The notes: generated by a model not told the origin, from the sequence alone. A stretch of DNA of 64,000 nucleotides from Parcubacteria group bacterium LiPW_30 (GCA_007375595.1 VMEP01000001.1:255883-319882); one strand, 5' to 3'; positions 4,028 through 60,938 are shown, numbered from the stretch's first letter. A program made the numbers and translations.

Positions 4028-4060
4028 AAAAAATCTCGTCACATGGCGAGATTTTTTATT
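4028..4060 (+). terminator. Terminator directly after rplB
   Basis: aaaaaatctcgtcacatggcgagattttttatt. Confidence 0.5.
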
Positions 4061-4062
4061 AC

Positions 4063-4145
4063 GAGTTTACTTTTATCTTTACGGGTATAGTATTTCTCTT
4101 AGTTTACTTCTTTAATTTTTTGGCGGAGGAATCATGTCAAGAGAA
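4063..4145 (+). repeat. Direct repeat copy 1 (~80 bp leader: promoter-like TATAGTAT, RBS GGAGGAA, ATG-TCA-AGA)
   Basis: Near-identical to 5081..5162; each precedes a different small ORF starting MSR. Confidence 0.8.
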
Positions 4146-5040: not shown

Positions 5041-5074
5041 CCTGCAAAACCATCTCGGTCCTGCAGGTTTTTCT
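5041..5074 (+). terminator. Rho-independent terminator
   Basis: cctgca...tgcagg stem then tttttc. Confidence 0.55.
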
Positions 5075-5080
5075 GTTATG

Positions 5081-5162
5081 GGTTTACTTTTATTCCTGCT
5101 GGTATAGTATTTCTCTTAGTTTACTTCTTTAATTTTTGGCGGAGGAATCATGTCAAGACTGA
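5081..5162 (+). repeat. Direct repeat copy 2 of the cassette leader
   Basis: Matches 4063..4145 with few substitutions. Confidence 0.8.
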
Positions 5163-15011: not shown

Positions 15012-15020
15012 CTAAATTTA

Positions 15021-15062
15021 TTTCCTACAATTATAACGCTATAGCGTTATAATTGTAGGAAA
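15021..15062. repeat. Perfect 42-bp palindrome centred on GCTATAGC
   Basis: tttcctacaattataacgc TATA gcgttataattgtaggaaa; no flanking U-tract. Confidence 0.8.
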
Positions 15063-15079
15063 TAAAAAAAACAAAAACA

Positions 15080-15924: not shown

Positions 15925-18675
15925 ATGGTTTTAAACTTTAACGGAGAAAGTCATGAAAAATTTGTAAATCCCGAAGAGGAGATTAATTTTTTGCGTGAAC
16001 GTCTTGCAGAAAAGGAAAAAGAAGCCTCGTTTGGTAAAGAATCGGCGCCAGTTAATCATGAAAAAGAGGTTATTAGGGAATATTCGGAAAAGCCAGCTCG
16101 GGAAATTTTGCATCACGAAAAGGTGCTGGGGGAACAAGAGGTAGAGCGTATCGTTCTTGATTTGAAGCCAGAAGAGCACGATAAACAAATGGAGGAGCTT
16201 CTAGGACTTCTTATTGAAAAAGGTGCTCGTAACACTATTTCAGTTGTGGAGAAGATGGATAATCCCCACATAACTGACGACTTTCACAGAATACTTGTTC
16301 AATATGTTAAAAGCGTAGGAAAAGTTCCAGACTTAGAAAAAGATAAACAAGTTTGGAAGGCGGTACATATGCGTCTTTATGAAATCCTTCTTCCAGAAGG
16401 AGACGCAGAAAAGCAGGCAAAAAGCTTTAAAGAAATTGTTACGATAATGGAACAGTTTTACGCTGGGATGCTTTCTGTTTCCGATGGTCGAGATAATTTT
16501 CCAGGGAAGAATTATTTTACGCTTGAGATAGCTTTGTCTAATCAAAGCAGTGAAATAGTTTTTTACGCTTCTGTTCCTGATGATAAGAGTGGTTTGTTGG
16601 AAAAACAGTTACTCGGTTTATATAAAGACGCTCGAATTAGGGAGGTAAAGGATGATTATAATATTTTTAACGAAAAGGGAGCATCTTTGGGCGCCTACGG
16701 AGCTTTCACAAAAAGTCAGGTCTATCCAATAAAAACATATGCAGATTTTGAACATGATCCACTTCCGGTAATTCTTAACGTTTTTTCTAAACTTAAAAAT
16801 AAAGGAGAGGGGGCGGCAATTCAATTTTCAGTTTCTCCTGTTGGTGATTATTTCTTGAAAAGATACGGAAGAGTGCTTGACGATTTAAAACGAGGAGTGC
16901 CAAAAGATGAAGCAACAAATATTTCGCCAACTGTCGGACAAGAGGTGGGGAGGTTTGCCAAGGAACTCATTATGGGTGTTTCTGTGCCTAAAAAAATTGA
17001 TGGGAAAGAGGTTATTGATGAAGACGCGGTAAAATATGTTTCGGAAAAAATTAGTAGCACTATTGTTAATACAAACATTCGAGTAATTGCTTCCGCAGAG
17101 ACAACCTTGCGCGCTGAAGAAATTTTAGGTGAACTACAATCGGCTTTTAATCAATTCACAGATACTAAAGGAAATGGTGTTGAGTTTAAGTCGTTAAAAC
17201 GCCACGACCTGTTGAAGCTTTTTCAAGAATTTTCTTATAGGCTATTTTCTCAAGATCATTCTTTGCCGCTCAACCTAAAAGAACTTACCACAATGTTCCA
17301 TTTTCCAGAGCAGGTTTCGTCGGCGCCACAACTAAAACAAGCCCGTTCCACGACAGCGCCTGCACCGCTTGATGCTCCAACCTACGGGACACTTCTTGGA
17401 ATAAATAAACACCGTGGAGAAAATAAGGAAATTTTTATTACCGACGAAGATCGAATGCGTCACTTTTATGTTGTCGGACAAACAGGCACTGGTAAGACCG
17501 CAATCATGAAGAACATGATTATTCAGAATATTAAAGCTGGGCACGGGGTGTGCATGATAGACCCACACGGAACCGATATTGAGGATATTTTAGGAAATAT
17601 TCCACCTGAGAGAGAAAAAGACGTTATTTATTTTGACCCAGCTTACACAGAAAGAGTGATGGGTTTGAACATGCTGGAGTATGACCAAACTCGACCAGAG
17701 CGGAAAACTTTCGTGGTTAACGAGTTGATTTCGATTTTTAATAAATTATTTGATATGAAAGTTGCTGGCGGACCAGCATTTGAACAGTACTTCAGAAACT
17801 CTGCTCTTTTGGTTATGGAACACCCAGAATCTGGCAGCACTCTTCTTGAAATTGTGCGTGTTTTGGCTGACAAATCTTTTCGTGACATGAAATTGTCTTA
17901 TTGTAAGAATCCAGTGATTACGCAGTTTTGGCAAAACGCGATTAAGACAAGCGGGGAGCAGTCGCTCGCCAACTTTGTCCCTTATATCTCAAGCAAATTT
18001 GATCCATTTTTATCAAACGATATTATGCGTCCAGTTATTGCTCAAGAAAAATCATCATTTAATTTTAGGCAAATAATGGATGAGAAAAAAATACTCTTGG
18101 TTAATTTGTCTAAAGGGAGGTTGGGAGATTTAAACGCCAATTTAATAGGGCTTATCTTGGTTGGCAAGATTCTTATTGCCGCGCTTTCTCGTGTTGATAT
18201 TGTTGGCGGAAAACCTGCTGATTTTTATTTATACATTGATGAGTTCCAAAATATAACCACTGACTCAATTTCCACAATCCTTTCAGAAGCGCGAAAATAC
18301 AGATTATCTCTAAATGTTGCCCATCAATTTATTAAACAACTTGATGAAAAAACAAAGAACGCTATTTTCGGCAACGTTGGTTCAATGGCGGTGTTTCGTG
18401 TTGGTAGTGAGGATGCAGAATTTTTAGAGAAACAACTTGCGCCAGTTTTTTCTGCAAGAGATATTATGAATTTGGACAATTATAACGCTTACGTGAAAAT
18501 GCTTATGAATGGTCAACCAGCCAGAGCTTTTAACATTGAAACGATTTCGCCAAGGAAGGGGGACGTAAATACCGCTACAAGAATTAAAGAGGCGTCTTAC
18601 CAAAAATACGGAACCCCCCGTGTAGAAATTGAGGAGCATATCGCTCAAAAGTATCGCCAAACAGGAACAGTTTAG
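15925..18675 (+). CDS. Large soluble P-loop ATPase: C-terminal VirD4/TraD/TrwB-like (type IV coupling protein family) domain with an uncharacterised ~480-aa N-terminal region
   Basis: Walker A GQTGTGKT, Walker B LYIDEF, downstream RKYR...NVAHQFIKQL resembling the T4CP R..QS..QL motif; no TM segments. Confidence 0.5.
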   Translation: MVLNFNGESHEKFVNPEEEINFLRERLAEKEKEASFGKESAPVNHEKEVIREYSEKPAREILHHEKVLGEQEVERIVLDLKPEEHDKQMEELLGLLIEKGARNTISVVEKMDNPHITDDFHRILVQYVKSVGKVPDLEKDKQVWKAVHMRLYEILLPEGDAEKQAKSFKEIVTIMEQFYAGMLSVSDGRDNFPGKNYFTLEIALSNQSSEIVFYASVPDDKSGLLEKQLLGLYKDARIREVKDDYNIFNEKGASLGAYGAFTKSQVYPIKTYADFEHDPLPVILNVFSKLKNKGEGAAIQFSVSPVGDYFLKRYGRVLDDLKRGVPKDEATNISPTVGQEVGRFAKELIMGVSVPKKIDGKEVIDEDAVKYVSEKISSTIVNTNIRVIASAETTLRAEEILGELQSAFNQFTDTKGNGVEFKSLKRHDLLKLFQEFSYRLFSQDHSLPLNLKELTTMFHFPEQVSSAPQLKQARSTTAPAPLDAPTYGTLLGINKHRGENKEIFITDEDRMRHFYVVGQTGTGKTAIMKNMIIQNIKAGHGVCMIDPHGTDIEDILGNIPPEREKDVIYFDPAYTERVMGLNMLEYDQTRPERKTFVVNELISIFNKLFDMKVAGGPAFEQYFRNSALLVMEHPESGSTLLEIVRVLADKSFRDMKLSYCKNPVITQFWQNAIKTSGEQSLANFVPYISSKFDPFLSNDIMRPVIAQEKSSFNFRQIMDEKKILLVNLSKGRLGDLNANLIGLILVGKILIAALSRVDIVGGKPADFYLYIDEFQNITTDSISTILSEARKYRLSLNVAHQFIKQLDEKTKNAIFGNVGSMAVFRVGSEDAEFLEKQLAPVFSARDIMNLDNYNAYVKMLMNGQPARAFNIETISPRKGDVNTATRIKEASYQKYGTPRVEIEEHIAQKYRQTGTV

Positions 18676-18779: not shown

Positions 18780-18829
18780 TTCCATACCTCCAATCCATGT
18801 GCTATAGCACATGGATTGGAGGTATGGAA
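18780..18829. repeat. Perfect 50-bp palindrome centred on GCTATAGC
   Basis: ttccatacctccaatccatgt GCTATAGC acatggattggaggtatggaa. Confidence 0.8.
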
Positions 18830-18940: not shown

Positions 18941-19033
18941 GGGCGAACAGTCTGGGTACAGACTGTTTTAGCCCTAAAACATTATTACCAAAATGTTCGG
19001 GCGAACAAATTTTAAATAAAATTTGTTTTAGCC
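18941..19033 (+). repeat. Two tandem copies of the TTCGGGCGA-hairpin-TTTTAGCC motif
   Basis: gggcgaaCAGTCTGggtaCAGACTGttttagcc then ctaaaa..ttcgggcgaaCAAATTTtaaataAAATTTGttttagcc. Confidence 0.6.
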
Positions 19034-19062
19034 ATTAAACAGTTAATTAAATTTCTAAATTT

Positions 19063-19539: not shown

Positions 19540-19547
19540 TTGATTAA

Positions 19548-19832
19548 AATAATTAGATAAATCAAGTATTTTTTGAAATTAAGGTTACTCGAGAATAAAT
19601 TTCTAATTAAATTTGGCTTGTCACTTTAGAAATATTCATAATTTCTGATAAATGTCAGAAATGGTTTGTTAAATATAGATATTTTAATTTTTAGTCCATT
19701 CCAATATAAATTTCTGATTAAATGGGGCCTGCCCCGTTAGAAATAAACGCTGTTTTACTTACAGCATCAAAATAATTATATAAATCAACCTGTTTTTGAA
19801 ATTATCTTTACTCGAGAATAAATTTCTAATGG
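19548..19832 (+). repeat. Two ~60-bp direct repeats (19548-19607, 19774-19832) sharing ttactcgagaataaatttctaat
   Basis: ~85% identity read by eye. Confidence 0.5.
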
Positions 19833-23329: not shown

Positions 23330-23700
23330 GTTTTTTAATGTTCGCCCTTAAAATGCGCGTATAATTTTTTGCTAAAAATTTACTATACTCGCCTCGCCAG
23401 GCTCCGTAATGCATTTTAAGGGCGAACATAGAGATATTAAATACAAAAAACTTTGCTGAATTTTCGCTCTGCTCGATTCGTCAATCTGCGCAAGGTATTT
23501 TAGGGGTGTATGCAGGAAATAAAATACTTAGAAATGCACGTATAATTTTCTGCTGAAAATTTACTATACTCGGCTCGTCAGCCTCCGTCTCTCAATTGCT
23601 TCACTTATCGCAATTGAGCATCGCACTGCGCCCGCCTGCGCGTACACGCGGGCAGGCAATGTTTTTAAATACAAAAAATTGGATTTTTGAAGAAGGAGGA
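23330..23700 (-). mobile_element. Cluster of two partial MITE-family copies, minus orientation
   Basis: 23341-23430 bounded by ttcgcccttaaaatgc / gcattttaagggcgaa inverted repeats; 23536-23690 is the reverse complement of modules seen at 54961-55105 (ctcaattgcgataagtgaagcaattgagagacggaggctgacgagccgag). Confidence 0.55.
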
Positions 23701-25005: not shown

Positions 25006-25064
25006 CTAAAATATTTTACAGAAAAATATTCGGGCGACCATTTTCTTTAGAAAATGGTTTAGCC
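25006..25064 (+). promoter_or_regulatory. CTAAAA-hairpin-TTCGGGCGA-hairpin-TTTTAGCC motif, antisense orientation abutting the tRNA-Ala 5' end
   Basis: Read on minus strand the motif ends TTTTAG immediately before mature tRNA G1. Confidence 0.5.
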
Positions 25065-25097
25065 TTTAAATTTTGAAACACTATACCAAAACAAACA

Positions 25098-27493: not shown

Positions 27494-27621
27494 GATGCCT
27501 CCCGTTCCTGTTGGTTGAAGAGACTACCTATGTTTACTCGCTACACTTCATCATCTTTGGGGCTGGAAGTCAAGGATAAAAAACAAACCCATGGAAACCT
27601 GTGCTTGTGTTTTTGTGGGGT

Positions 27622-27683
27622 GGCTAAAACATCTCTACAAAAGAGATGTTCGCCCGAATATTTTGTAATTGCAAAATATTTTA
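27622..27683 (-). promoter_or_regulatory. Fifth copy of the TTCGGGCGA hairpin motif, sense orientation ahead of gene 27705
   Basis: ggctaaaaCATCTCTacaaaAGAGATGttcgcccgaa tattttgtaattgcaaaatat tttag | gagggg. Confidence 0.5.
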
Positions 27684-27704
27684 GGAGGGGTAGGATTGGG
27701 GGAC

Positions 27705-31228: not shown

Positions 31229-31364
31229 CAAGGGAGATTGACTATAAATAACTTTTTGCCGTCGCAAAAAGTTTTGAGGATTAGTTCGATGTGGGAATTG
31301 GTCACAAATCTTTTGTTGCTACAAAAGTTCGCGACCCCGCCTCGCGCCGTCGCGCTCCGGCTTT

Positions 31365-31447
31365 CAATTCCCCACACAAGACATGCAGATGTCTTGCTCC
31401 ATCTCCACAAACAAAAATGGCTCACCGAAAGGTGAGCTCATTTTTGA
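31365..31447. repeat. Inverted partial copy of the tmRNA 3' end next to a bidirectional terminator hairpin
   Basis: ttcaattcccc...tccatctccacaa is the reverse complement of tmRNA 3' segments tgtggagatgg / ggggaattgaa; terminator ggctcaccgaaaggtgagcc. Confidence 0.5.
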
Positions 31448-31849: not shown

Positions 31850-31910
31850 CTAAAACATTTTTGTTGCAAAAATGTTCGGGCGACCATTTTCTTTAGAAAA
31901 TGGTTTAGCC
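31850..31910 (+). promoter_or_regulatory. CTAAAA-hairpin-TTCGGGCGA-hairpin-TTTTAGCC motif abutting the tmRNA 5' end (antisense as written)
   Basis: 45-nt core identical to the copy at 25019-25064. Confidence 0.5.
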
Positions 31911-31913
31911 AAT

Positions 31914-32183
31914 TTAATGGCACACCCTATTTTGTTTATATTTCTTTAAAATCTTTTGTTTGAATCTAGCCGACCACAGACTTTTTAGGAATCTCTCTCT
32001 GTTGAACGCTTCACTTTTATCATCTAATTTTTCAGAATAAATGATTTCAAACGGTCGGCGTTTTACAGTCGCGATAACCTTGCCTTGATTGTGGTCTTTG
32101 ATTCTGCGTTCAAGATTTTCTGTACATCCTACATACAGTTTCTCGTCTTTTAAACTGAGTAGAATATAAACAAAATAGGGCAT
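31914..32183 (-). CDS. GIY-YIG domain nuclease (UPF0213/YhbQ-like)
   Basis: YFVYILLS..KLYVGCT..L.RRI.DHN motif set. Confidence 0.75.
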   Translation of the reverse strand: MPYFVYILLSLKDEKLYVGCTENLERRIKDHNQGKVIATVKRRPFEIIYSEKLDDKSEAFNRERFLKSLWSARFKQKILKKYKQNRVCH

Positions 32184-35744: not shown

Positions 35745-35786
35745 TCCCCCGACTATAATTACGCTATAGCGTAATTATAGTCGGGG
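35745..35786. repeat. Perfect 42-bp palindrome centred on GCTATAGC
   Basis: cccccgactataattacgc TATA gcgtaattatagtcggggg. Confidence 0.8.
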
Positions 35787-39959: not shown

Positions 39960-40165
39960 AAATATCTTACTTGCTGTTGCTCGTAAAAATTTAAAACGGA
40001 GACGGTGGTTCGGCCACGAATATTTTACTCGCCGTCGCTCGTAAAATTTCTTGACCACGGCTCGCGACCTGTTCTGCTGAACAGGTGCCCGCTCCGCCTT
40101 TCGAATCCCACCGTCTTTACGAAAAATATAGTCACAAAATGCTTCACATTTTGTTCCTTGTTTTA
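39960..40165. repeat. Degenerate repeats derived from the tRNA-Ser 3' end
   Basis: aacggagacggtgg at 40002 and 40165; ttcgaatcccaccgtct at 40097 is an inverted copy of the T-arm/acceptor; direct repeats ttact[ct]gc[ct]gt[ct]gctcgtaaaa at 39969 and 40025. Confidence 0.5.
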
Positions 40166-51885: not shown

Positions 51886-54416
<2,531 letters not shown>

Positions 54417-54505
54417 TTTTTACTCATTGACTTTTACGTAAAAGTATGATAGTGTTTTTGATAGTTTGCTGTACCTAATATTAACCTTTCGTGAGGAGGC
54501 TCTGA

Positions 54506-54841
54506 ATGAAGCCACGTGAAAAAAGCGCACTAAAGAGTGTCGTCGTCTTGTTCTTCTGTGCTGTGATGATGTCGGTTACGGCGATGTTTTTTCCCGAGTA
54601 CTTTGTCGAGATGTTTTTTATTGTTTTTCTCGCCACTGTATTTGTAATCAACCGACACCTCTGTGCCTCGTGCCCGAAATGCGGAAGCTGGGACACGTCT
54701 CGGAAGAGCAGTATGTCATTTGATTCACATCTTGGCTCCTTTCATTCGGTTGAATGGCAGATCTGTTCATGTGGATATGAATGGGGGAGTCATCACGAAA
54801 TCCTTTCAGCGAGAGAACATTCCCGTAGAAGCCCTATGTAA
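54506..54841 (+). CDS. Hypothetical 2-TM protein with C-terminal CxxC...CxC zinc-ribbon-like segment
   Basis: ORF with hydrophobic N-terminal half; GC higher than neighbours. Confidence 0.35.
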   Translation: MKPREKSALKSVVVLFFCAVMMSVTAMFFPEYFVEMFFIVFLATVFVINRHLCASCPKCGSWDTSRKSSMSFDSHLGSFHSVEWQICSCGYEWGSHHEILSAREHSRRSPM

Positions 54842-54940
54842 TTTCCCTCAAGTGGATAAAAGGCGGAGTGGTAGCAATACCCCCGCCTTTTTGTTTTGTT
54901 TTTAAAAATATTACGGAATTGTATTTTTTTAATTTAAGAC

Positions 54941-55127
54941 CCAAAATACCCCCAAAAAACATTGCGCAGTGCGACTGGCTCAATTGCGATAAGTGAAGCA
55001 ATTGAGAGACGGAGGCTGACGAGCCGAGTCGGGGTAGCGCAAATTTCTAGCAAGAAATTATGCGTGACCGAGCATAGTAAATTTTTAGCAAAAAATTATA
55101 CGCGTTTTTTGGGGGTATTTTAAAAAA
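54941..55127. mobile_element. MITE-like element, long copy; perfect 18-bp terminal inverted repeats
   Basis: ccaaaatacccccaaaaaac ... gttttttgggggtattttaa; internal modules shared with 1116, 23536-23690 (reverse complement), 59842-59937, 57740-57800. Confidence 0.65.
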
Positions 55128-55169
55128 AGAGATTTACTACCAACTTTTGATTTCTTGCGTTAGTATAAA

Positions 55170-55295
55170 GGGATGAATCCCGTTAGAAATCAGTATGTTA
55201 TATTTTGACGATGAATACATTTATCACACAACTAAATAGTCGAGCAATAGTTGCCAAACTAATACACGGAAGCGTCGACGCTTCCTATTTCTAAC
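55170..55295 (+). promoter_or_regulatory. Long-range inverted repeat plus internal palindrome in the gatC leader
   Basis: gggatgaatcccgttagaaat ... atttctaacgggatgaag; internal ggaagcgtcgacgcttcc. Confidence 0.35.
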
Positions 55296-55298
55296 GGG

Positions 55299-55577
55299 AT
55301 GAAGAAAGAAGATTTAGACAAATTAGCCAAGCTTTCACGTCTTTCCATTACCGACGAGGAAAAAGAAAAGCTCGCTTTGGAATTTGACTCAATTTTGGGT
55401 TATGTTTCTGAAATTGAAAAAGTTTCAGTGGGAGAGCGCATTCTTGAGGCTGGTCCTTTAAGAAACGTTATGCGTGAAGACGGAGAGCCACACGAAAGCG
55501 GTCTTTATACTAAAGCCATTTTAAATAATGCTCCAGATACGGAAGATGGGTATTTGAAAGTTAAACAAGTTTTTTAA
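55299..55577 (+). CDS. gatC: Glu-tRNA(Gln) amidotransferase subunit C
   Basis: Size, position before gatA, GatC-like sequence. Confidence 0.8.
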   Translation: MKKEDLDKLAKLSRLSITDEEKEKLALEFDSILGYVSEIEKVSVGERILEAGPLRNVMREDGEPHESGLYTKAILNNAPDTEDGYLKVKQVF

Positions 55578-57005: not shown

Positions 57006-57620
57006 ATGTTAGACCAAGAAACATTAACAAGACTAGGAAAGGGTGATGAAATTAATTATCTAAATCTAGAGTATTTTTTTAATTTAATATATCAAGGTTT
57101 AAACAATATTTATTTGCTTCTTTCCGGTGGTATTCCAGGTGTTTCATTTAGTGAAATTTTTTTGACCTTAAAAAATATTTTGCAAATATTGATTGTTTTT
57201 CTTATTGTGGGAATAGTTTATTGTTTTCTTCGTCTTCGTGAAATACGAAAAGAACAAAACGATAAATTAACTATCATTGAAATAAAAGATGATGGTGAGA
57301 AAATTAGAAATGAACGCTGGGCTATTGTTCAAGATCATTTGAATAGCGACAACGAAGCAGACTGGAAATTTGCAGTTATTGAGGCAGATAACATATTAGA
57401 TGAGCTCGTCAGAAAAATGGGATATGACGGAGAAGATTTAGGGGAACGTTTGAAGGCCGTTGAGCCATCCGATTTTCAAAGTTTACAAAGTGCGTGGGAG
57501 GCACATAAGGTACGTAATCAGATTGTTCATGAAAGTTCTGGTTTTAAGCTTACATACGCCGAAACAAAAAGAATAATTGGTTTATATGAACAGGTATTCC
57601 GTGAGTTTGAATATTTGTAA
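57006..57620 (+). CDS. Hypothetical membrane-anchored protein with C-terminal HEPN-like R-N-x-x-x-H motif (HKVRNQIVHE)
   Basis: TM helix ILQILIVFLIVGIVYCFL then soluble domain; motif-level inference. Confidence 0.4.
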   Translation: MLDQETLTRLGKGDEINYLNLEYFFNLIYQGLNNIYLLLSGGIPGVSFSEIFLTLKNILQILIVFLIVGIVYCFLRLREIRKEQNDKLTIIEIKDDGEKIRNERWAIVQDHLNSDNEADWKFAVIEADNILDELVRKMGYDGEDLGERLKAVEPSDFQSLQSAWEAHKVRNQIVHESSGFKLTYAETKRIIGLYEQVFREFEYL

Positions 57621-57655
57621 ATTTAGTTGAATTTTTTTGGTTTTGGGGTATTATT

Positions 57656-57685
57656 AGCACGAACGCCTGTAGAGACAGGCCTTTT
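57656..57685 (+). terminator. Terminator hairpin
   Basis: gcctgtagagacaggcctttt. Confidence 0.5.
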
Positions 57686-57719
57686 CAGTTAAAAACTGAG
57701 AAATTATATAGCGGGATGC

Positions 57720-57858
57720 GGGCTTATGGAGTAAGACCGGGCCGGAGCGTGGCGACGCGAGGCGGGGTCGCAGAATTTTTCAGCAGAAAAATATCTGTGA
57801 CGAAGTGGTACTCCTTGTGGTTTAACCACAAAGTTTGTTAAGGTAGTTGTTGAAAGAA
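57720..57858. mobile_element. MITE-family fragment inserted at the tRNA-Met 5' end, flanked by a direct repeat of the tRNA start
   Basis: Direct repeat aattata(t)agcgggatg at 57703 and 57856; internal ccggagcgtggcgacgcgaggcggggtcgcagaatttttcagcagaaaaatat matches family modules. Confidence 0.45.
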
Positions 57859-57863
57859 TTATA

Positions 57864-57932
57864 GCGGGATGGAGAAGTGGTATCTCGCAAGGCTCATAAC
57901 CTTGAGGCGCCCGTTCGAGTCGGGCTCCCGCA
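57864..57932 (+). tRNA. tRNA (anticodon CAT; Met or Ile-lysidine type), compact D-region
   Basis: Acceptor GCGGGAT/CTCCCGC, D-stem GAGA/TCTC, anticodon stem CAAGG/CCTTG, loop CTCATAA, T-loop TTCGAGT. Confidence 0.55.
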
Positions 57933-57993
57933 ACAAGTAAGCGTGGGTGACAGTCGCGAAGTTTCTAGTGTCACAGTACGATTATGATAGCTT

Positions 57994-58064
57994 GCCGATG
58001 TAGTTCAATGGTAGAACGAAGGACTCATAAGCCTTAGACAATGGTCCGATTCCATTCATCGGCA
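57994..58064 (+). tRNA. tRNA (anticodon CAT), second copy type
   Basis: Acceptor GCCGATG/CATCGGC, D-arm TAGTTCAATGGTAGAAC, loop CTCATAA, T-arm AATGG/CCATT. Confidence 0.55.
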
Positions 58065-58086
58065 CTCGGTTTAAAAAATCGAAAAT

Positions 58087-58162
58087 GCGGCCATAGCTCA
58101 ACTGGTTAGAGCACTCGCCTGTCACGCGAGAGGTTGTGGGTTCAAGTCCCATTGGCCGCGCA
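58087..58162 (+). tRNA. tRNA-Asp (anticodon GTC)
   Basis: Acceptor GCGGCCA/TGGCCGC, anticodon stem CTCGC/GCGAG, loop CTGTCAC, T-loop TTCAAGT. Confidence 0.85.
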
Positions 58163-58196
58163 AAATTAATCCCCGAAAGGGGATTTAATTTTGCGT
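58163..58196 (+). terminator. Terminator after the tRNA cluster
   Basis: aaattaatccccgaaaggggatttaatttt. Confidence 0.6.
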
Positions 58197-58209
58197 GACA
58201 AAGCAAGAC

Positions 58210-58325
58210 ACTTGAGTGCCTTGCGGTGGGACTTGAAGCCCGGAGCGATGTTTTTGTTTGAGCGTAGCGAAAGGCAAAAACCGCGAGGGCGGGCTGGGCG
58301 ATTTTTCAGTCAGGAAAAATACGAC
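58210..58325. repeat. GC-rich MITE-family fragment
   Basis: gggcgatttttcagtcaggaaaaatacgac resembles the aatttttcagcagaaaa core. Confidence 0.35.
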
Positions 58326-58462
58326 TAGCCAAGTCCAATTAGTATTTCTTTTTTGGTTTTTTTACAATTAAAATAACCCACTTGTCTTAAAGGTAAAATG
58401 GGTATTAAATTAAGCTAAATTTATCTCCCAGGAAGAGATTATGAAAATTACAATTACTCTAA

Positions 58463-59572
58463 ATGAAGATTTTTTACCATATACGAAACGCAGTAATTTC
58501 AATTATATTTTTAGGAAGTTTTTTTATTTTACCTTCGCTATCATATGCTGTATCAGGCACATGTTCATATCATGGAGGCGTTAACTGTTCGGCAGGATTT
58601 GATTGGGATGGAAGCGCTATTTGTAACGATGGATGGCGAGATAGTAGTGAACTATATTCTCAAGTCAATGGATGTTCTACTGATAGACGTCCTTTATGCA
58701 CGTCCGAAGAGGTTACCCAGCTTCAGAATAAATATGGTCTTCCTGAAATAAAACAAAGATGGGATAGTATTTCCCAAAAAATAGACGCTATTGCAAATAG
58801 CTCACAGTCATCCACTGACACCAATACTCTTCGGAATAATGCCATAGAATCAAGTAAACTTTATATAGAATTTTTACCCGTACAAGTTGAGTACCAAAAT
58901 GCATTCAACCACGCAATGGAAGATTGTTACGAACTAGGAGCTAAAGAAGAACAACAATTTAAGGATAATTTATACAAGCAACAGCAACAGAATCAAGATA
59001 ATTTGCGGAAGAAAGACCAAGAATTGGAAGATTACTTGTATAAGCTACTTCAATCTCAACAAACACAACCTACATCACAGCCAGCACAAACTAGTGGTGA
59101 TGTATGTGTAGAAAGAGGGGTTGCACATTCTCATTTAAAAAATTCTGCCTGTGAGTGTGATTCGGGGTATTACAACATTAACAATTCTTGTGTCCCATAC
59201 GATAACGCATGCAAGAGTCAGATGGGGTCTAGTGCTTACTATATTGGAAATAATCAATGCTCATGTTCAGCAGGTTATATTATGGAAAATAGTAAATGTG
59301 TTCCGCAGACTCTTCCTGTCAATAACAATAATGCAAATACATCGTCTGTGAATACGACTAACACTGTCTCACCAAAAGAAACTGTATTGCCATATAAACC
59401 TAAAGTAGAAGTTAAGAACCTTCCTGCCAAAACTAGTATTTCAAAATCAAAATCATTAGATAAACCACAAGCAACAACCACAAGCACGACAACTGCTCCA
59501 GTAATTCAAAAAAACACTAAACCAACAATTACTTCTAGAATTGGCTCGTGGCTCAAGAGTTTATTCAGATAA
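58463..59572 (+). CDS. Secreted Cys-repeat protein, paralog of 28059..29042
   Basis: Signal peptide; CECDSGYYNINNSCVP / CSCSAGYIMENSKCVP repeats, Thr/Asn-rich linker, C-terminal SWLKSLFR. Confidence 0.6.
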   Translation: MKIFYHIRNAVISIIFLGSFFILPSLSYAVSGTCSYHGGVNCSAGFDWDGSAICNDGWRDSSELYSQVNGCSTDRRPLCTSEEVTQLQNKYGLPEIKQRWDSISQKIDAIANSSQSSTDTNTLRNNAIESSKLYIEFLPVQVEYQNAFNHAMEDCYELGAKEEQQFKDNLYKQQQQNQDNLRKKDQELEDYLYKLLQSQQTQPTSQPAQTSGDVCVERGVAHSHLKNSACECDSGYYNINNSCVPYDNACKSQMGSSAYYIGNNQCSCSAGYIMENSKCVPQTLPVNNNNANTSSVNTTNTVSPKETVLPYKPKVEVKNLPAKTSISKSKSLDKPQATTTSTTTAPVIQKNTKPTITSRIGSWLKSLFR

Positions 59573-59682
59573 AGTTAGTCAGTTGAAGCTTTGGAATGTA
59601 AATACTCGTATCATTTATTCTTTCAAAACTGGTTCTGGTGTCGTTCAGTAAGTCGCGCAAAGTTAATCCCGTTCGCTTTGAG

Positions 59683-59717
59683 AAAACGCAGAAATAGATT
59701 ACTATTTCTGCGTGTTT
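59683..59717 (+). terminator. Rho-independent terminator
   Basis: aaaacgcagaaatagattactatttctgcgtgttt. Confidence 0.65.
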
Positions 59718-59722
59718 AGTTT

Positions 59723-59795
59723 GCCGTTGTAGCTCAGTTGGTAGAGCACGTCATTGGTAATGACGAGGTCTCCGGTTCAATCCCGGACAACGGCT
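59723..59795 (+). tRNA. tRNA-Thr (anticodon GGT)
   Basis: Acceptor GCCGTTG/CAACGGC, anticodon stem CGTCA/TGACG, loop TTGGTAA, T-loop TTCAATC. Confidence 0.85.
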
Positions 59796-59960
59796 CTGGG
59801 TTGTAACCAGTAAATAATTTTACTGGTGTACGGGATTGAAAGCCGGAGGCAGACGTGCCGAGGCGGGGTAGCGCAACCGGAGGCAGACGTGCCGAGGCGG
59901 GGTAGCGCAAAAATTTAGCAAAATTTTATGCGTGACCAATCCCGGACAACGGCTCTGGGT
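59779..59960. mobile_element. 137-bp MITE-family insert bounded by a 23-bp direct repeat of the tRNA-Thr 3' end
   Basis: aatcccggacaacggctctgggt at 59779-59801 and 59938-59960; insert has tandem 34-bp repeat ccggaggcagacgtgccgaggcggggtagcgcaa x2 plus aaatttagcaaaattttatgcgtgacc. Confidence 0.6.
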
Positions 59961-59972
59961 ATATAGGAATAT

Positions 59973-60048
59973 GCCACCTTAGCTCAGTTGGTAGAGCGAC
60001 CCCTTCGTAAGGGGTAGGTCCCCAGTTCGATTCTGGGAGGTGGCTCCA
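59973..60048 (+). tRNA. tRNA-Thr (anticodon CGT), CCA encoded
   Basis: Acceptor GCCACCT/AGGTGGC, anticodon stem ACCCC/GGGGT, loop TTCGTAA, T-loop TTCGATT. Confidence 0.85.
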
Positions 60049-60050
60049 AA

Positions 60051-60938
60051 ATGAAAGATAAACAGTCTATAGAAAAACGTATAGCAGAAATCGAAGCCCA
60101 AATGGCGGGGGCGGATTTTTGGAATGATAAGGTCACAGCGCAAGCAATATTAAAAGAATTTCAGCAATTAAAAAACGACCTTGAGGGCGCGTCTCGATAC
60201 GACAAGGGAAACGCTGTGATGACTATTTTCTCTGGGGCTGGTGGCGATGATTCTGAAGATTTTTCACGGATGCTTCTTAATATGTATGAAAAGTTTTTTG
60301 CGAAAAAAGGTTGGACCTCGCACGTTGTGCATGAAAATAAAAATGATTTAGGGGGATATCGTAATATCACAATCGAAATTAGTGGGAAAAACGCATATGG
60401 TTTGTTAAAAAATGAATCCGGTGTTCACAGGCTTGTTCGTATTTCTCCTTTTAATGCAAAAAAACTTCGCCACACCTCATTTTCAATGGTTGAAGTTATT
60501 CCAGATTTTGAAGAGGGAGATGAAAGTGATGTTCAGATTGCACCAGAAGACGTAAGGGTTGAATTTGCACGCTCGTCTGGTCCTGGTGGGCAAAACGTCA
60601 ATAAAAGAGAGACCGCAGTAAGAGTGGTGTATTTGGCGACAAATATTGCGGTTCACGCTGAGACGGAGCGTTCTCAAGAGCAGAACCGCGCGCGGGCTAT
60701 GCAGATTTTGCGAGGGAAATTATTTAAGAAAATGGAAGATGAGCGAAAGTCTAGAGAAAGTGGAATGTATGTTTCTAAGACAACTGAGGTTGAATGGGGT
60801 AATCAAATTCGCTCATACGTTTTGCATCCCTATAAAATGGTTAAGGACCACAGAACTGGTGTAGAAACAGGGGACGTGGACGGAGTTTTGGAAGAAGGAA
60901 AATTGGAGGAGTTTATTGAAGCAGAAAAAGGACTCTAG
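60051..60938 (+). CDS. prfB: Peptide chain release factor 2, short form (295 aa) with no programmed-frameshift leader
   Basis: SPF tripeptide (RISPFNAKKLRHTSF) and GGQ (SGPGGQNVNK); ATG 3 nt after the tRNA-Thr CCA end. Confidence 0.85.
   Translation: MKDKQSIEKRIAEIEAQMAGADFWNDKVTAQAILKEFQQLKNDLEGASRYDKGNAVMTIFSGAGGDDSEDFSRMLLNMYEKFFAKKGWTSHVVHENKNDLGGYRNITIEISGKNAYGLLKNESGVHRLVRISPFNAKKLRHTSFSMVEVIPDFEEGDESDVQIAPEDVRVEFARSSGPGGQNVNKRETAVRVVYLATNIAVHAETERSQEQNRARAMQILRGKLFKKMEDERKSRESGMYVSKTTEVEWGNQIRSYVLHPYKMVKDHRTGVETGDVDGVLEEGKLEEFIEAEKGL

Follow-up and report, generated by a model that had tools for sequence, protein, structure and literature searches.

[quoted passage not shown] The constant part of this family is a two-hairpin core of 57-63 nt and not a terminal inverted repeat. 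The element lies in the window, by which we mean the whole 64,000-nt stretch of DNA that was analysed. The family is best read as a non-autonomous, structure-recognised integrative repeat, which would act as a folded single strand and depend on a putative enzyme provided in trans; we give this reading a probability of roughly 0.45, slightly below an even chance. CPR genomes are small, and repeats and mobile DNA are thought to be scarce in them. In the window, a noticeable part of the intergenic space is taken up by one structured element, at about one copy per 6 kb; in CPR bacteria this element causes assemblies to break and marks sites of difference between strains. Mosaic repeats of small palindromes are already known, and what is new here is the junction core, its Patescibacteria-wide range, its absence from Rfam and the cognate copies of gene ends.

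Structure and distribution of the core

The core comprises two hairpins, P2 and P3, and is closed by a further stem, P1, so arranged that the compact copies at 1116-1212 and 23338-23429 form three-way junctions. In P2, stems of 3 bp and 4 bp are separated by an invariant GGA/GA internal loop, and the 4-bp stem ends in a GRCG loop, while P3 consists of a lower stem, a bulged A, a mostly A/T stem of 7 bp and an AGCA loop; the loops and two closing pairs were fixed by the search pattern, and their invariance is therefore uninformative. The GRCG loop is expandable, and a longer hairpin takes its place in the matches at 58260-58330 and 40012-40079. Likeness to the hammerhead, the twister and the K-turn was also considered by eye and rejected, CUGAnGA being unconserved. 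The bulge in the P2 loop is 1 nt and not 3 nt, and P2 is therefore K-turn-like at most.

A scan of species-representative genomes (one per species) with the core pattern gave at least 120 loci. Both helices were complementary in 113 of the 129 pattern matches listed, six of which lie in the window. Two matches that missed this complementarity filter (L013 and L070) were recovered by the covariance model, and the other 14 failures came from G+C-rich genomes of other phyla and were not recognised by it. Among the matches listed, the structured ones are all from Patescibacteria, at no fewer than 105 loci in many lineages, including Paceibacteria/Parcubacteria, Nomura-, Kaiser-, Yonath- and Taylorbacteria, Minisyncoccia and many Saccharibacteria MAGs; the further copies for which the preliminary description suggested a search are thus found in at least 105 Patescibacteria loci. 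Among the loci listed, the covariance model gave 125 matches, spread over 100 loci; the chance loci of other phyla gave none, and the three pattern matches in viral contigs were unstructured and attributable to chance. The family is mosaic, extragenic and multi-copy. Several copies often occur per 8 kb, with seven in the 2.4-kb contig L059; compound or nested copies are present in L059, L113 and L123 as well as at c54 and c23b of the window, and contigs frequently end within copies.

In the alignment of the 113 cores, 95.4% of the paired cells were complementary, versus 71.4% in shuffles and 32-49% when the partners were slid against each other. Nineteen of the 23 core pairs changed on both sides across the 113 copies, including pairs of helices that were unused for filtering, and the covariation score over the same cores was 0.57 versus 0.155. 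For instance, pair 3-23 of P2a occurs as CG (55 copies), AU (31), GC (14) and UA (11), and pair 35-57 of P3 as CG (49), GC (30) and AU (23). Moreover, G.U/U.G pairs outnumber A.C/C.A pairs by 156 to 10 in the core, or by 79 to 10 when one conserved wobble is removed, and the strand shown is therefore the folding strand, either as RNA or as single-stranded DNA. The strong covariation together with this strand-specific G.U excess points to recognition of a folded single strand and not of double-stranded ends.

The core covaries more clearly than many curated RNA families. Rfam 15 gave no match in the window at the gathering score and, at E<=10, none overlapping any copy in 57600-60100 and 54880-55320, so that a known RNA gene, which the preliminary description had named as an alternative, has no counterpart among the copies. 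As well, literature searches found no description of such a CPR repeat or RNA. A family with clear covariation and yet no Rfam entry deserves a model of its own, which would improve annotation in thousands of MAGs. The LOOT RNA of Rfam was matched in L037, at 3 kb from the element and without overlap.

Copies in the window and their turnover between strains

With filters off, the covariance model gave 12 matches in the window at E<1e-4, corresponding to about ten elements, one tandem hairpin duplication and one extra P3 hairpin, and the degenerate core pattern matched six times versus 0.00 expected from shuffles. Folding z-scores against shuffles were -6.8 (1116-1212), -8.2 (23335-23436, minus strand), -6.2 (the copy at the tmRNA gene) and -6.75 (54935-55135). 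The internal modules recur at the places reported in the preliminary description, and the covariance model of the core recognises all of the segments named there as related. The unit reported at 23341-23430 corresponds to a core match at 23353-23409 (minus strand, 59 bits) and the reverse-complement unit at 23536-23690 to one at 23534-23590 (minus strand, 59 bits). The supposed fragments at 57.7, 58.3 and 59.9 kb, however, are complete copies of a tRNA-linked subtype, and although several copies had been seen correctly, three on the minus strand had been overlooked (31300-31362, 40012-40079 and 23437-23493), which brings the total in 64 kb to about ten.

The copy at 54941-55127 (c54, plus strand) is compound. 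Its core at 55007-55069 scored 78.6 bits and a second match 25.4 bits, and the minimum free energy of folding was -70.8 kcal/mol (z -6.75). The inverted termini claimed for it are real, 54943-54960 (AAAATACCCCCAAAAAAC) and 55104-55121 being complementary at 18 of 18 positions and forming the outer closing stem P1. Within this stem lie a left module ATTGCGCAGTGCGA (54961-54974), a hairpin H0 (54978-55007), the inner full core and a second, outer P3 hairpin (55076-55102). The copy is an outer element like that at 1116-1212, with P1, the left module and its own P3, which encloses H0 and a full core. Positions 54978-55029 (52 nt) are 100% identical to the reverse complement of 23568-23619 in another compound copy (c23b), indicating that a module was exchanged recently between the two loci.

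The copy at 1116-1212 (c1, plus strand) is a compact three-way junction of P1, P2 and P3, with a folding z-score of -6.76 and a core at 1137-1193 (57 bits). Its inverted termini, likewise noticed earlier, are the two sides of P1, 1118-1135 and 1190-1207, which pair at 17 of 18 positions. It is located in the rpsJ-rplC spacer, 3' of the rpsJ terminator and 5' of the rplC promoter. The remnant arms of an older element of the locus-L003 type, which spans 1036-1243 on the plus strand (5' arm 1036-1061, 3' arm 1224-1243), enclose c1, and the arrangement is therefore nested.

Three copies lie side by side on the minus strand. The first, c23a (23338-23429), has a perfect 19-bp closing stem (ATGTTCGCCCTTAAAATGC), a folding z-score of -8.24 and a core at 23353-23409 (59.2 bits). 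The second, c23c (23437-23512; match 23437-23493, 31.8 bits), is decayed, its 3' half being replaced from the AGCA loop of P3 onwards, and its counterpart is intact in strains L139-L142. The third, c23b (23520-23680), is compound and carries a left end AAAAACATTGC, an optional G+C hairpin, H0 and a core at 23534-23590 (59.2 bits).

Comparison of strains revealed gain and loss of copies and of whole hairpins. In four contigs from other samples with identical infC, c23a is wholly absent, its 19-bp arms included, and the neighbouring copy, decayed as c23c in the window, is intact, with the breakpoint at the AGCA loop. In seven contigs with identical gatC, the gap between ligA and gatC is 27 nt, versus 895 bp in the window, where the strain-specific segment (54404-55298, plus strand) includes a promoter, an ORF of 111 aa, a terminator, c54 and a new promoter/leader for gatC. 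Some strains carry c1 in the rpsJ-rplC spacer, and others have there a different variant with one to four extra ORFs. None of the filled and empty sites compared makes a clean pair with an exact junction, the strain differences being replacements within diverged flanks, and comparison around the tRNA-Ser gene, the tmRNA gene and a 369-aa gene yielded no usable variants.

Units of ORF, terminator and element that are present or absent between strains, as at ligA-gatC and rpsJ-rplC, recall an integron, in which the element would be an attC-analogous, folded single-stranded hairpin marking small gene cassettes inserted in intergenic spacers. Such a site would also account for strand-specific folding and for a hairpin whose base and tip are conserved and whose stem is variable yet paired, and the order of a gene end, its inverted copy, the hairpin and a direct copy (a ... 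a'-hairpin-a) formally equals attI ... R''-attC-R'. However, the R''/R' consensus (RYYYAAC/GTTRRRY) is absent from the stem bases, which read CAAAATAC/GTATTTTA, AATATTC/GAATATT or GAGCGAG/CGAGCG in the CPR copies, and the terminal structure is conserved here but variable in attC. Moreover, no integrase lies beside any cluster, most copies are without an ORF, and the copies are dispersed and do not form one array. We regard an integron-like site as clearly improbable.

Closing stems and inverted termini

Across the family, the pairing of the closing stem P1 is kept and its sequence differs from copy to copy. The inverted termini that the preliminary description ascribed to the family belong to one subfamily (c1/c54), in which they have the form CAAAATAC-N5-6-AAAAACATTGC ... 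GYGTTTTT-N5-6-GTATTTTAAAAAA. About 20 related copies of that subfamily from metagenomes show these termini (CAAAATAC.../...GTATTTTAAAAAA) again, which is not the case across the whole family, where the sequence changes and the complementarity remains. The copy at 23338-23429 represents another subfamily, AATATTC...AAAATGCATTA / GCGCATTTT...GAATATT, and in both subfamilies the middle of the stem is variable, with mostly compensating changes. For this comparison, 32 further copies with the exact P3 of the window were taken from metagenomes; a metagenome scan with the earlier terminal repeat plus ATTGC gave 0 matches.

In the short subtype, P1 has a median of 21 Watson-Crick pairs (range 7-38), every copy has its own sequence, and P1 differs even inside one genome (L021/L022, and the two L107 copies). 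Mismatches in P1 are G.T in 27 cases versus A.C in 7, and tandem G.A pairs are numerous. A GAGCGAG/CGAGCG motif recurs at the base of short-type stems; its reading as a target-site duplication flanking the stems was rejected, the GAGCG motifs being tandem G.A pairs of the stem itself. The stem-base motif recurs and the middle varies; the variable helix is therefore internal to the element, with a conserved base on one side and a conserved tip on the other. No extra copies of the short-type arms were found elsewhere in their own loci, and a search upstream for a direct copy of the 3' arm gave a weak signal only in the c1 subtype (median z 1.4).

The preliminary description interpreted the repeats as MITE-like. 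In a classical MITE, the double-stranded terminal repeats would be bound by the transposase of a related IS elsewhere in the genome, and insertion would produce a target-site duplication. Much of that description stands, since the elements are short, modular, multi-copy, strain-variable and without coding capacity or an enzyme of their own nearby, and since 18-19 bp inverted termini are common to c1, c54 and the 20 or so related metagenome copies. A classical MITE, however, is not supported. The target-site duplications for which a search had been proposed are absent from 1116-1212, 54941-55127 and 23338-23429, and the ends are wholly different between subfamilies, even within a genome, while the interior is conserved. 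The changes in the middle of the supposed terminal repeat are mostly compensating, the structure belongs to one strand, and a site read as a duplex would not be expected to show G.T in excess of A.C. The earlier remark that no transposase is present in the window was borne out by Pfam scans of 30 of its proteins, which also detected no integrase, reverse transcriptase or HUH enzyme; the autonomous partner envisaged earlier was found neither within 3 kb of the approximately 105 loci nor in viral contigs. A classical MITE is therefore very unlikely.

The search for an enzyme also covered recurrent neighbours. An all-against-all BLAST of the ORFs within 3 kb of the approximately 105 loci gave a largest cluster of 7 loci, made up of housekeeping genes, and no HUH gene was seen in the dense loci. 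Since neither the window nor the recurrent neighbours include a recombinase, a transposase or an HUH enzyme, an enzyme acting in trans is hypothetical. TIGR arrays have alternating 8-12 nt repeats and 9-nt spacers and adjoin a Nop-domain Tas gene, and in an alternative form they consist of stem-loop units with box C (RUGAUGA) and box D (CUGA) (PMC12045711). A TIGR or box C/D-like guide was rejected, as the copies have no box C, no box D, no alternating short repeats and no recurrent neighbour gene.

Another reading of double-stranded DNA is that of a regulatory site, such as an operator, an UP element or a terminator of neighbouring genes. Copies do end at a distance of 10-60 nt from a downstream -35 box (at infC, at gatC and in several copies from metagenomes), and A/T tracts occur at their 3' ends. 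However, the gene contexts are unrelated and include tRNA trailers, no U-tract follows P1, and covariation of stems 60 nt apart, together with the G.U bias, is foreign to duplex operators. The element is also dispensable, sister strains keeping the same promoters. We regard such a site as extremely unlikely.

Copies at gene 3' ends and their interpretation

Long-type cores, defined as those with ...GAGGCGGGGTCGCG..., are frequently linked to stable-RNA genes. Among the matches listed, 47 of 75 long-type cores lie no more than 250 nt from a tRNA or tmRNA gene, and 33 of those 47 are directly downstream and on the same strand, at many isoacceptors. In this way, half of the family shows an att-like arrangement at the 3' ends of stable-RNA genes, and copies also adjoin 5S rRNA (five loci) and RNase P RNA genes. 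The order is constant. The gene end (a) is followed, after a linker of 2-170 nt, by its inverted copy (a'), GAAAGC, the core, GUGAC and a direct copy (a2); a comprises the final 7-24 nt of the tRNA, tmRNA or rplK gene next to the element. The same a - a' - core - a2 design surrounds the rplK stop codon in four species, and it is therefore not confined to RNA genes.

The copied ends are cognate. The inverted copy a' corresponds to its own tRNA end over at least 8 nt in 24 of 33 cases, versus 11.6% of non-cognate pairs, and a2 matches its own tRNA end exactly over at least 12 nt in 12 of 33, versus 0% of non-cognate pairs. In L116, L056, L068, L069, L083 and L114, a direct repeat of 19-20 nt extends from C56 of the T-loop to the tRNA end; a second pattern consists of the discriminator and a few trailer bases (CACAAAG). 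Some copies, such as those of this second pattern, are joined to tRNA 3' ends within tRNA operons and must be transcribed. The inserts between the repeats are 80-170 bp long, non-coding and without an integrase gene, and the linkers from tRNA to a' are non-homologous between copies and resemble the tRNA's own terminator. Changes in a, a' and a2 go together in orthologous rplK and tRNA loci. A conserved junction surrounded by cognate copies of tRNA, tmRNA and rplK ends, both direct and inverted, is not accounted for by any repeat described in bacteria, and it points to a new choice of integration site or to a new control of RNA 3' ends.

Five of roughly seven tRNA/tmRNA transcription units in the window carry a copy. 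Like several others, the copy at 31284-31408 (c31, minus strand; core 31300-31362, 80.6 bits) sits 3' of a terminator, in this case that of the tmRNA gene, and other copies lie 5' of promoters. Its a', which is interrupted by a hairpin, is complementary at 20 of 20 positions to the 3' end of the tmRNA gene, with the trailer CAA included; at 31284-31300 this gene end recurs as a degenerate direct copy. The presence of the genomic trailer CAA and not CCA indicates that a' was copied from DNA or a primary transcript and not from the mature RNA, and the idea of a tRNA-primer-binding site was rejected for the same reason. The copy at 39997-40114 (c40, minus strand; match 40012-40079, 26.8 bits) is located 3' of tRNA-Ser, whose 3' end is copied inverted at 40099-40114 and directly at 39997-40012; both P2 and P3 are expanded.

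The remaining three are on the plus strand. The copy at 57701-57830 (c57; core 57740-57802, 78.7 bits) lies upstream of tRNA-Met, and its core is embedded in a duplicated 5' fragment of that gene, promoter-proximal sequence included. At 58202-58340 (c58; match 58260-58330, 26.6 bits), 3' of tRNA-Asp, the copy consists of a hairpin, an inverted T-loop/T-stem copy (GGGACTTGAA), an expanded P2, P3 and a direct copy CAAGTCC. Between two tRNA-Thr genes, the copy at 59802-59960 (c59; core 59875-59937, 72 bits, with a second match of 26.7 bits) has a 24-nt direct repeat CAATCCCGGACAACGGCTCTGGGT at 59778-59801 (the tRNA end) and 59937-59960, identical at 24 of 24 positions, an inverted copy CGGGATTG and a tandem duplication of P2 (59841-59872).

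In the main rival explanation, the element is a structured RNA with a host function in tRNA trailers and 3' UTRs, either a cis-acting module or a small RNA. Its transcription would be shared with the upstream gene or tRNA operon, a' would pair either with the upstream 3' end (H0) or with a2 (P1), and the RNA would serve as a switch or as a processing or stability signal, with a conserved CPR protein reading the GGA/GA and AGCA loops. We consider this possible though rather unlikely. It is consistent with core loops that are deeply conserved over distant lineages, covarying helices, tandem G.A motifs and G.U far above A.C, as well as with pattern-II copies that lie between tRNA genes and are fused to a tRNA 3' end. 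Of the short-type copies, 23 of 32 have an upstream gene in the same orientation, as do 46 of 55 copies of the long type, and orientation follows the neighbouring genes on both strands of the window despite a single replication direction, which is also a poor fit to a lagging-strand-template mechanism. Loci are retained across species (rplK in four, 5S in four), and the joint change of the trailer or rplK end, a' and a2 is what selection on two pairings, H0 and P1, would yield. However, many copies lie behind intrinsic terminators and upstream of promoters and have no recognisable promoter of their own, and those adjacent to 5S genes are antisense to all neighbouring genes. Perfect, copy-specific closing stems of 20-38 bp are unexpected for a stable bacterial RNA, and the direct repeats contain positions that are unpaired with a', such as in the 20-nt repeat of L116. 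Gain and loss between near-identical strains, nesting, assembly breaks and about ten copies per 64 kb in unrelated gene contexts also speak against it. The two readings, a host RNA and an integrative repeat, are not mutually exclusive; REP and Correia elements, for instance, are mobile DNA and are also active in transcripts.

For the preferred reading, that of an integrative repeat, we propose that a protein encoded elsewhere recognises the element as a folded single strand, probably of DNA rather than RNA. The element would spread or be renewed through site-specific insertion at a target that its closing stem matches. Free or folded, a'/a would be a double-stranded mimic of that target, and recombination of the 3' arm with the identical genomic sequence would give a - linker - a' - core - a, the target gene being kept intact. 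Copies also nest and recombine at the conserved loops, which gives rise to the modules and to compound copies such as 54941-55127. Several results count against integration. Non-homologous, terminator-like linkers are not predicted by a simple circle-integration model, and short-type copies are without an upstream copy of the 3' arm. The absence of an exact-junction empty site among the strains compared, the transcribed copies in tRNA operons and the gene-following orientation weigh in the same direction, and the joint change of a, a' and a2 in orthologous loci is accounted for by selection on two alternative RNA pairings no less well than by repeated insertion.

The family shares features with several known systems. 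REP/BIME and REPIN sequences of proteobacteria, which are mobilised by RAYT, a Y1 HUH transposase, are likewise extragenic, multi-copy, hairpin-forming mosaics, mostly downstream of co-oriented genes and thought to be recognised as folded single strands by an enzyme encoded elsewhere. Unlike the REP/BIME unit, an imperfect palindrome of 20-40 nt with a 5' GTAG and a RAYT gene flanked by REPs, the CPR core has no GTAG, no RAYT was seen, and the unit is a two-hairpin junction with invariant internal loops and a copy-specific closing stem, one subtype being linked to tRNA ends. Conservation of the CPR core is also superphylum-wide, whereas that of REP is genus-wide. Rickettsia RPE, Neisseria Correia and pneumococcal BOX elements are small palindromic or modular repeats of reduced or host-associated genomes, some of them in or beside RNA genes, with mechanisms that are unknown or partly known. 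Correia elements have conserved ends and BOX has fixed modules; none of the three is known to have target-derived stems or any sequence relation to the CPR family.

Integrative elements of tRNA and tmRNA genes, with att sites for tyrosine integrases at T-loop and 3'-end sublocations, likewise show a direct repeat from the T-loop or discriminator to the 3' end of the RNA gene, and the duplicated segment keeps the gene intact. In contrast to these elements, the CPR "island" is only 80-170 bp long, lacks an integrase and holds an inverted target copy and a structured core, and a double-stranded circle of 80-170 bp could not form. The integron attC and the CTX-phi attP(+) hairpin are folded duplex copies of their targets. 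In them, too, intrastrand pairing rebuilds a target-like duplex, stems keep their pairing and vary in sequence, and folding is strand-specific; the CPR element differs in having neither the R-box consensus nor dif-like sites, in its conserved hairpin tip and in its targets, which would be many RNA-gene ends. The ends of IS200/IS605 elements and of their miniature derivatives (PATEs) similarly lack the usual terminal repeat and target-site duplication, carry hairpins with bulged bases, pair an internal guide with the flanking target and insert 3' of it. Compared with IS200/IS605, guide-target pairing in the CPR element would be 7-23 nt and not 4-5 nt, and both ends would be served by a single hairpin unit; a fixed target tetranucleotide is absent, TnpA (Y1) was unseen at the loci, and both orientations occur in one replichore, whereas orientation in the IS200/IS605 group is tied to the lagging-strand template.

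Finally, a more speculative and improbable proposal, though less so than the integron-like one, is that the closing stem is a programmable address or a reversible sequestrator of RNA 3' ends. As a sequestrator, a trailer module would reversibly hide the preceding tRNA, tmRNA or mRNA 3' end through a/a' versus a'/a2 pairing. As an address, the a'/a stem, a folded copy of both target strands, might home the element, while a CPR-wide enzyme acting in trans would read the invariant two-hairpin core; any genomic sequence matching the stem would be a target, with 3' ends of stable RNAs preferred. Conceptually, such an address stands between the guide pairing of IS200/IS605, the folded sites of CTX-phi and attC, and the bridge-RNA recombinases.

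Element copies at stable RNA and rplK genes

Upstream of tRNA-Met in the window, a second copy of the promoter-proximal sequence plus ~24 nt from the tRNA 5' end lies ahead of the real gene (57701-57830 versus 57853-57895), and the modular hairpin repeat interrupts this duplicate between tRNA positions 9 and 10. In each of four other genomes, a high-scoring copy begins a spacing of 30-220 nt past the 5S rRNA gene 3' end and is antisense to that gene (loci L011, 838-1043; L081, 4109-4326; L088, 1003-1201; and L075, 312-700). As well, the RNase P RNA gene at locus L066 has a copy 174 nt upstream, in divergent orientation.

The protein gene rplK carries the element at its 3' end in four loci (L023, L079, L082, and L124), where the element 5' arm pairs with the last codons and the stop codon, and these codons recur in diverged form 3' of the core. 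These three segments match one another inside each species and differ from species to species.

Spacers and leaders at rplC and gatC

The spacer between rpsJ and rplC is a hot spot in other strains (L002, 3400-4320; L003 and L004), in which one to four extra ORFs are located upstream of the resident element. These comprise a 118-aa ORF, or 80-, 78-, and 64-aa ORFs together with a 489-aa DUF5667 protein. In the window, rplC has a promoter of its own, TTGCAT...TATAAT, and its leader is structured, with a terminator-like hairpin and T-run at the end (1250-1366). Together, these features suggest an S10-operon-type attenuator for rplC, separate from rpsJ.

Between ligA and gatC, the window carries a strain-specific 895-bp segment (54404-55298), in which a zinc-ribbon-like ORF of 111 aa has both a promoter and a terminator of its own. 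In other strains with identical GatC, a spacer of 27 nt takes the place of this segment. The gatC leader (55150-55298) contains a promoter-like TTGATT...TATAAA. On the 3' side of this sequence, ~100 nt are flanked by the two 12-nt arms of a long-range inverted repeat, CCCGTTAGAAAT / ATTTCTAACGGG. This leader had no match in Rfam and is therefore not recognisable as a T-box.

Other repeats and genes in the neighbourhood

The tRNA-Ala and tmRNA genes are each directly preceded by a shared GGCTAAA...TTTTAGG module (43 nt, 98% identity), which is also present at two further window sites; its positions are 25015-25070(-), 31860-31915(-), 27620-27700(+), and 18965-19045(+). The module runs from GGCTAAA through a hairpin, TCGSSCGA, and a second hairpin, the stem of which covaries, to TTTTAGG, and TTCGSSCGA occurs nine times against 1.8 expected. 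Downstream of the module site at 27653, an unannotated RNA may start near 27690, where Rfam gave no match. The arms of the element copy at 23338-23429(-) are similar to this module (ATGTTCGCCC).

Three long, perfect or near-perfect palindromes were also observed (15017-15066, 18780-18829, and 35749-35784), the first two with arms of 25+25 nt and zero spacer. All three are intergenic and have unrelated arms around the common centre GCTATAGC, which was found three times against 0.26 expected. They form a second family in the same genome, with variable arms around a conserved centre.

Two direct-repeat pairs, 4052-4120 / 5069-5137 (69 nt, 87% identity) and 19543-19607 / 19766-19830 (65 nt, 86% identity), are unrelated to the hairpin repeat family. 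On a Minisyncoccia contig (L037, 797-912), a LOOT RNA (Rfam RF03000, 73.9 bits) lies 3 kb from the element without overlapping it. Finally, the gene at 15925-18675 in the window, surrounded by housekeeping genes, encodes a protein of 916 aa that has coupling-protein ATPase domains of the HerA/TraG-TraD/TrwB type.
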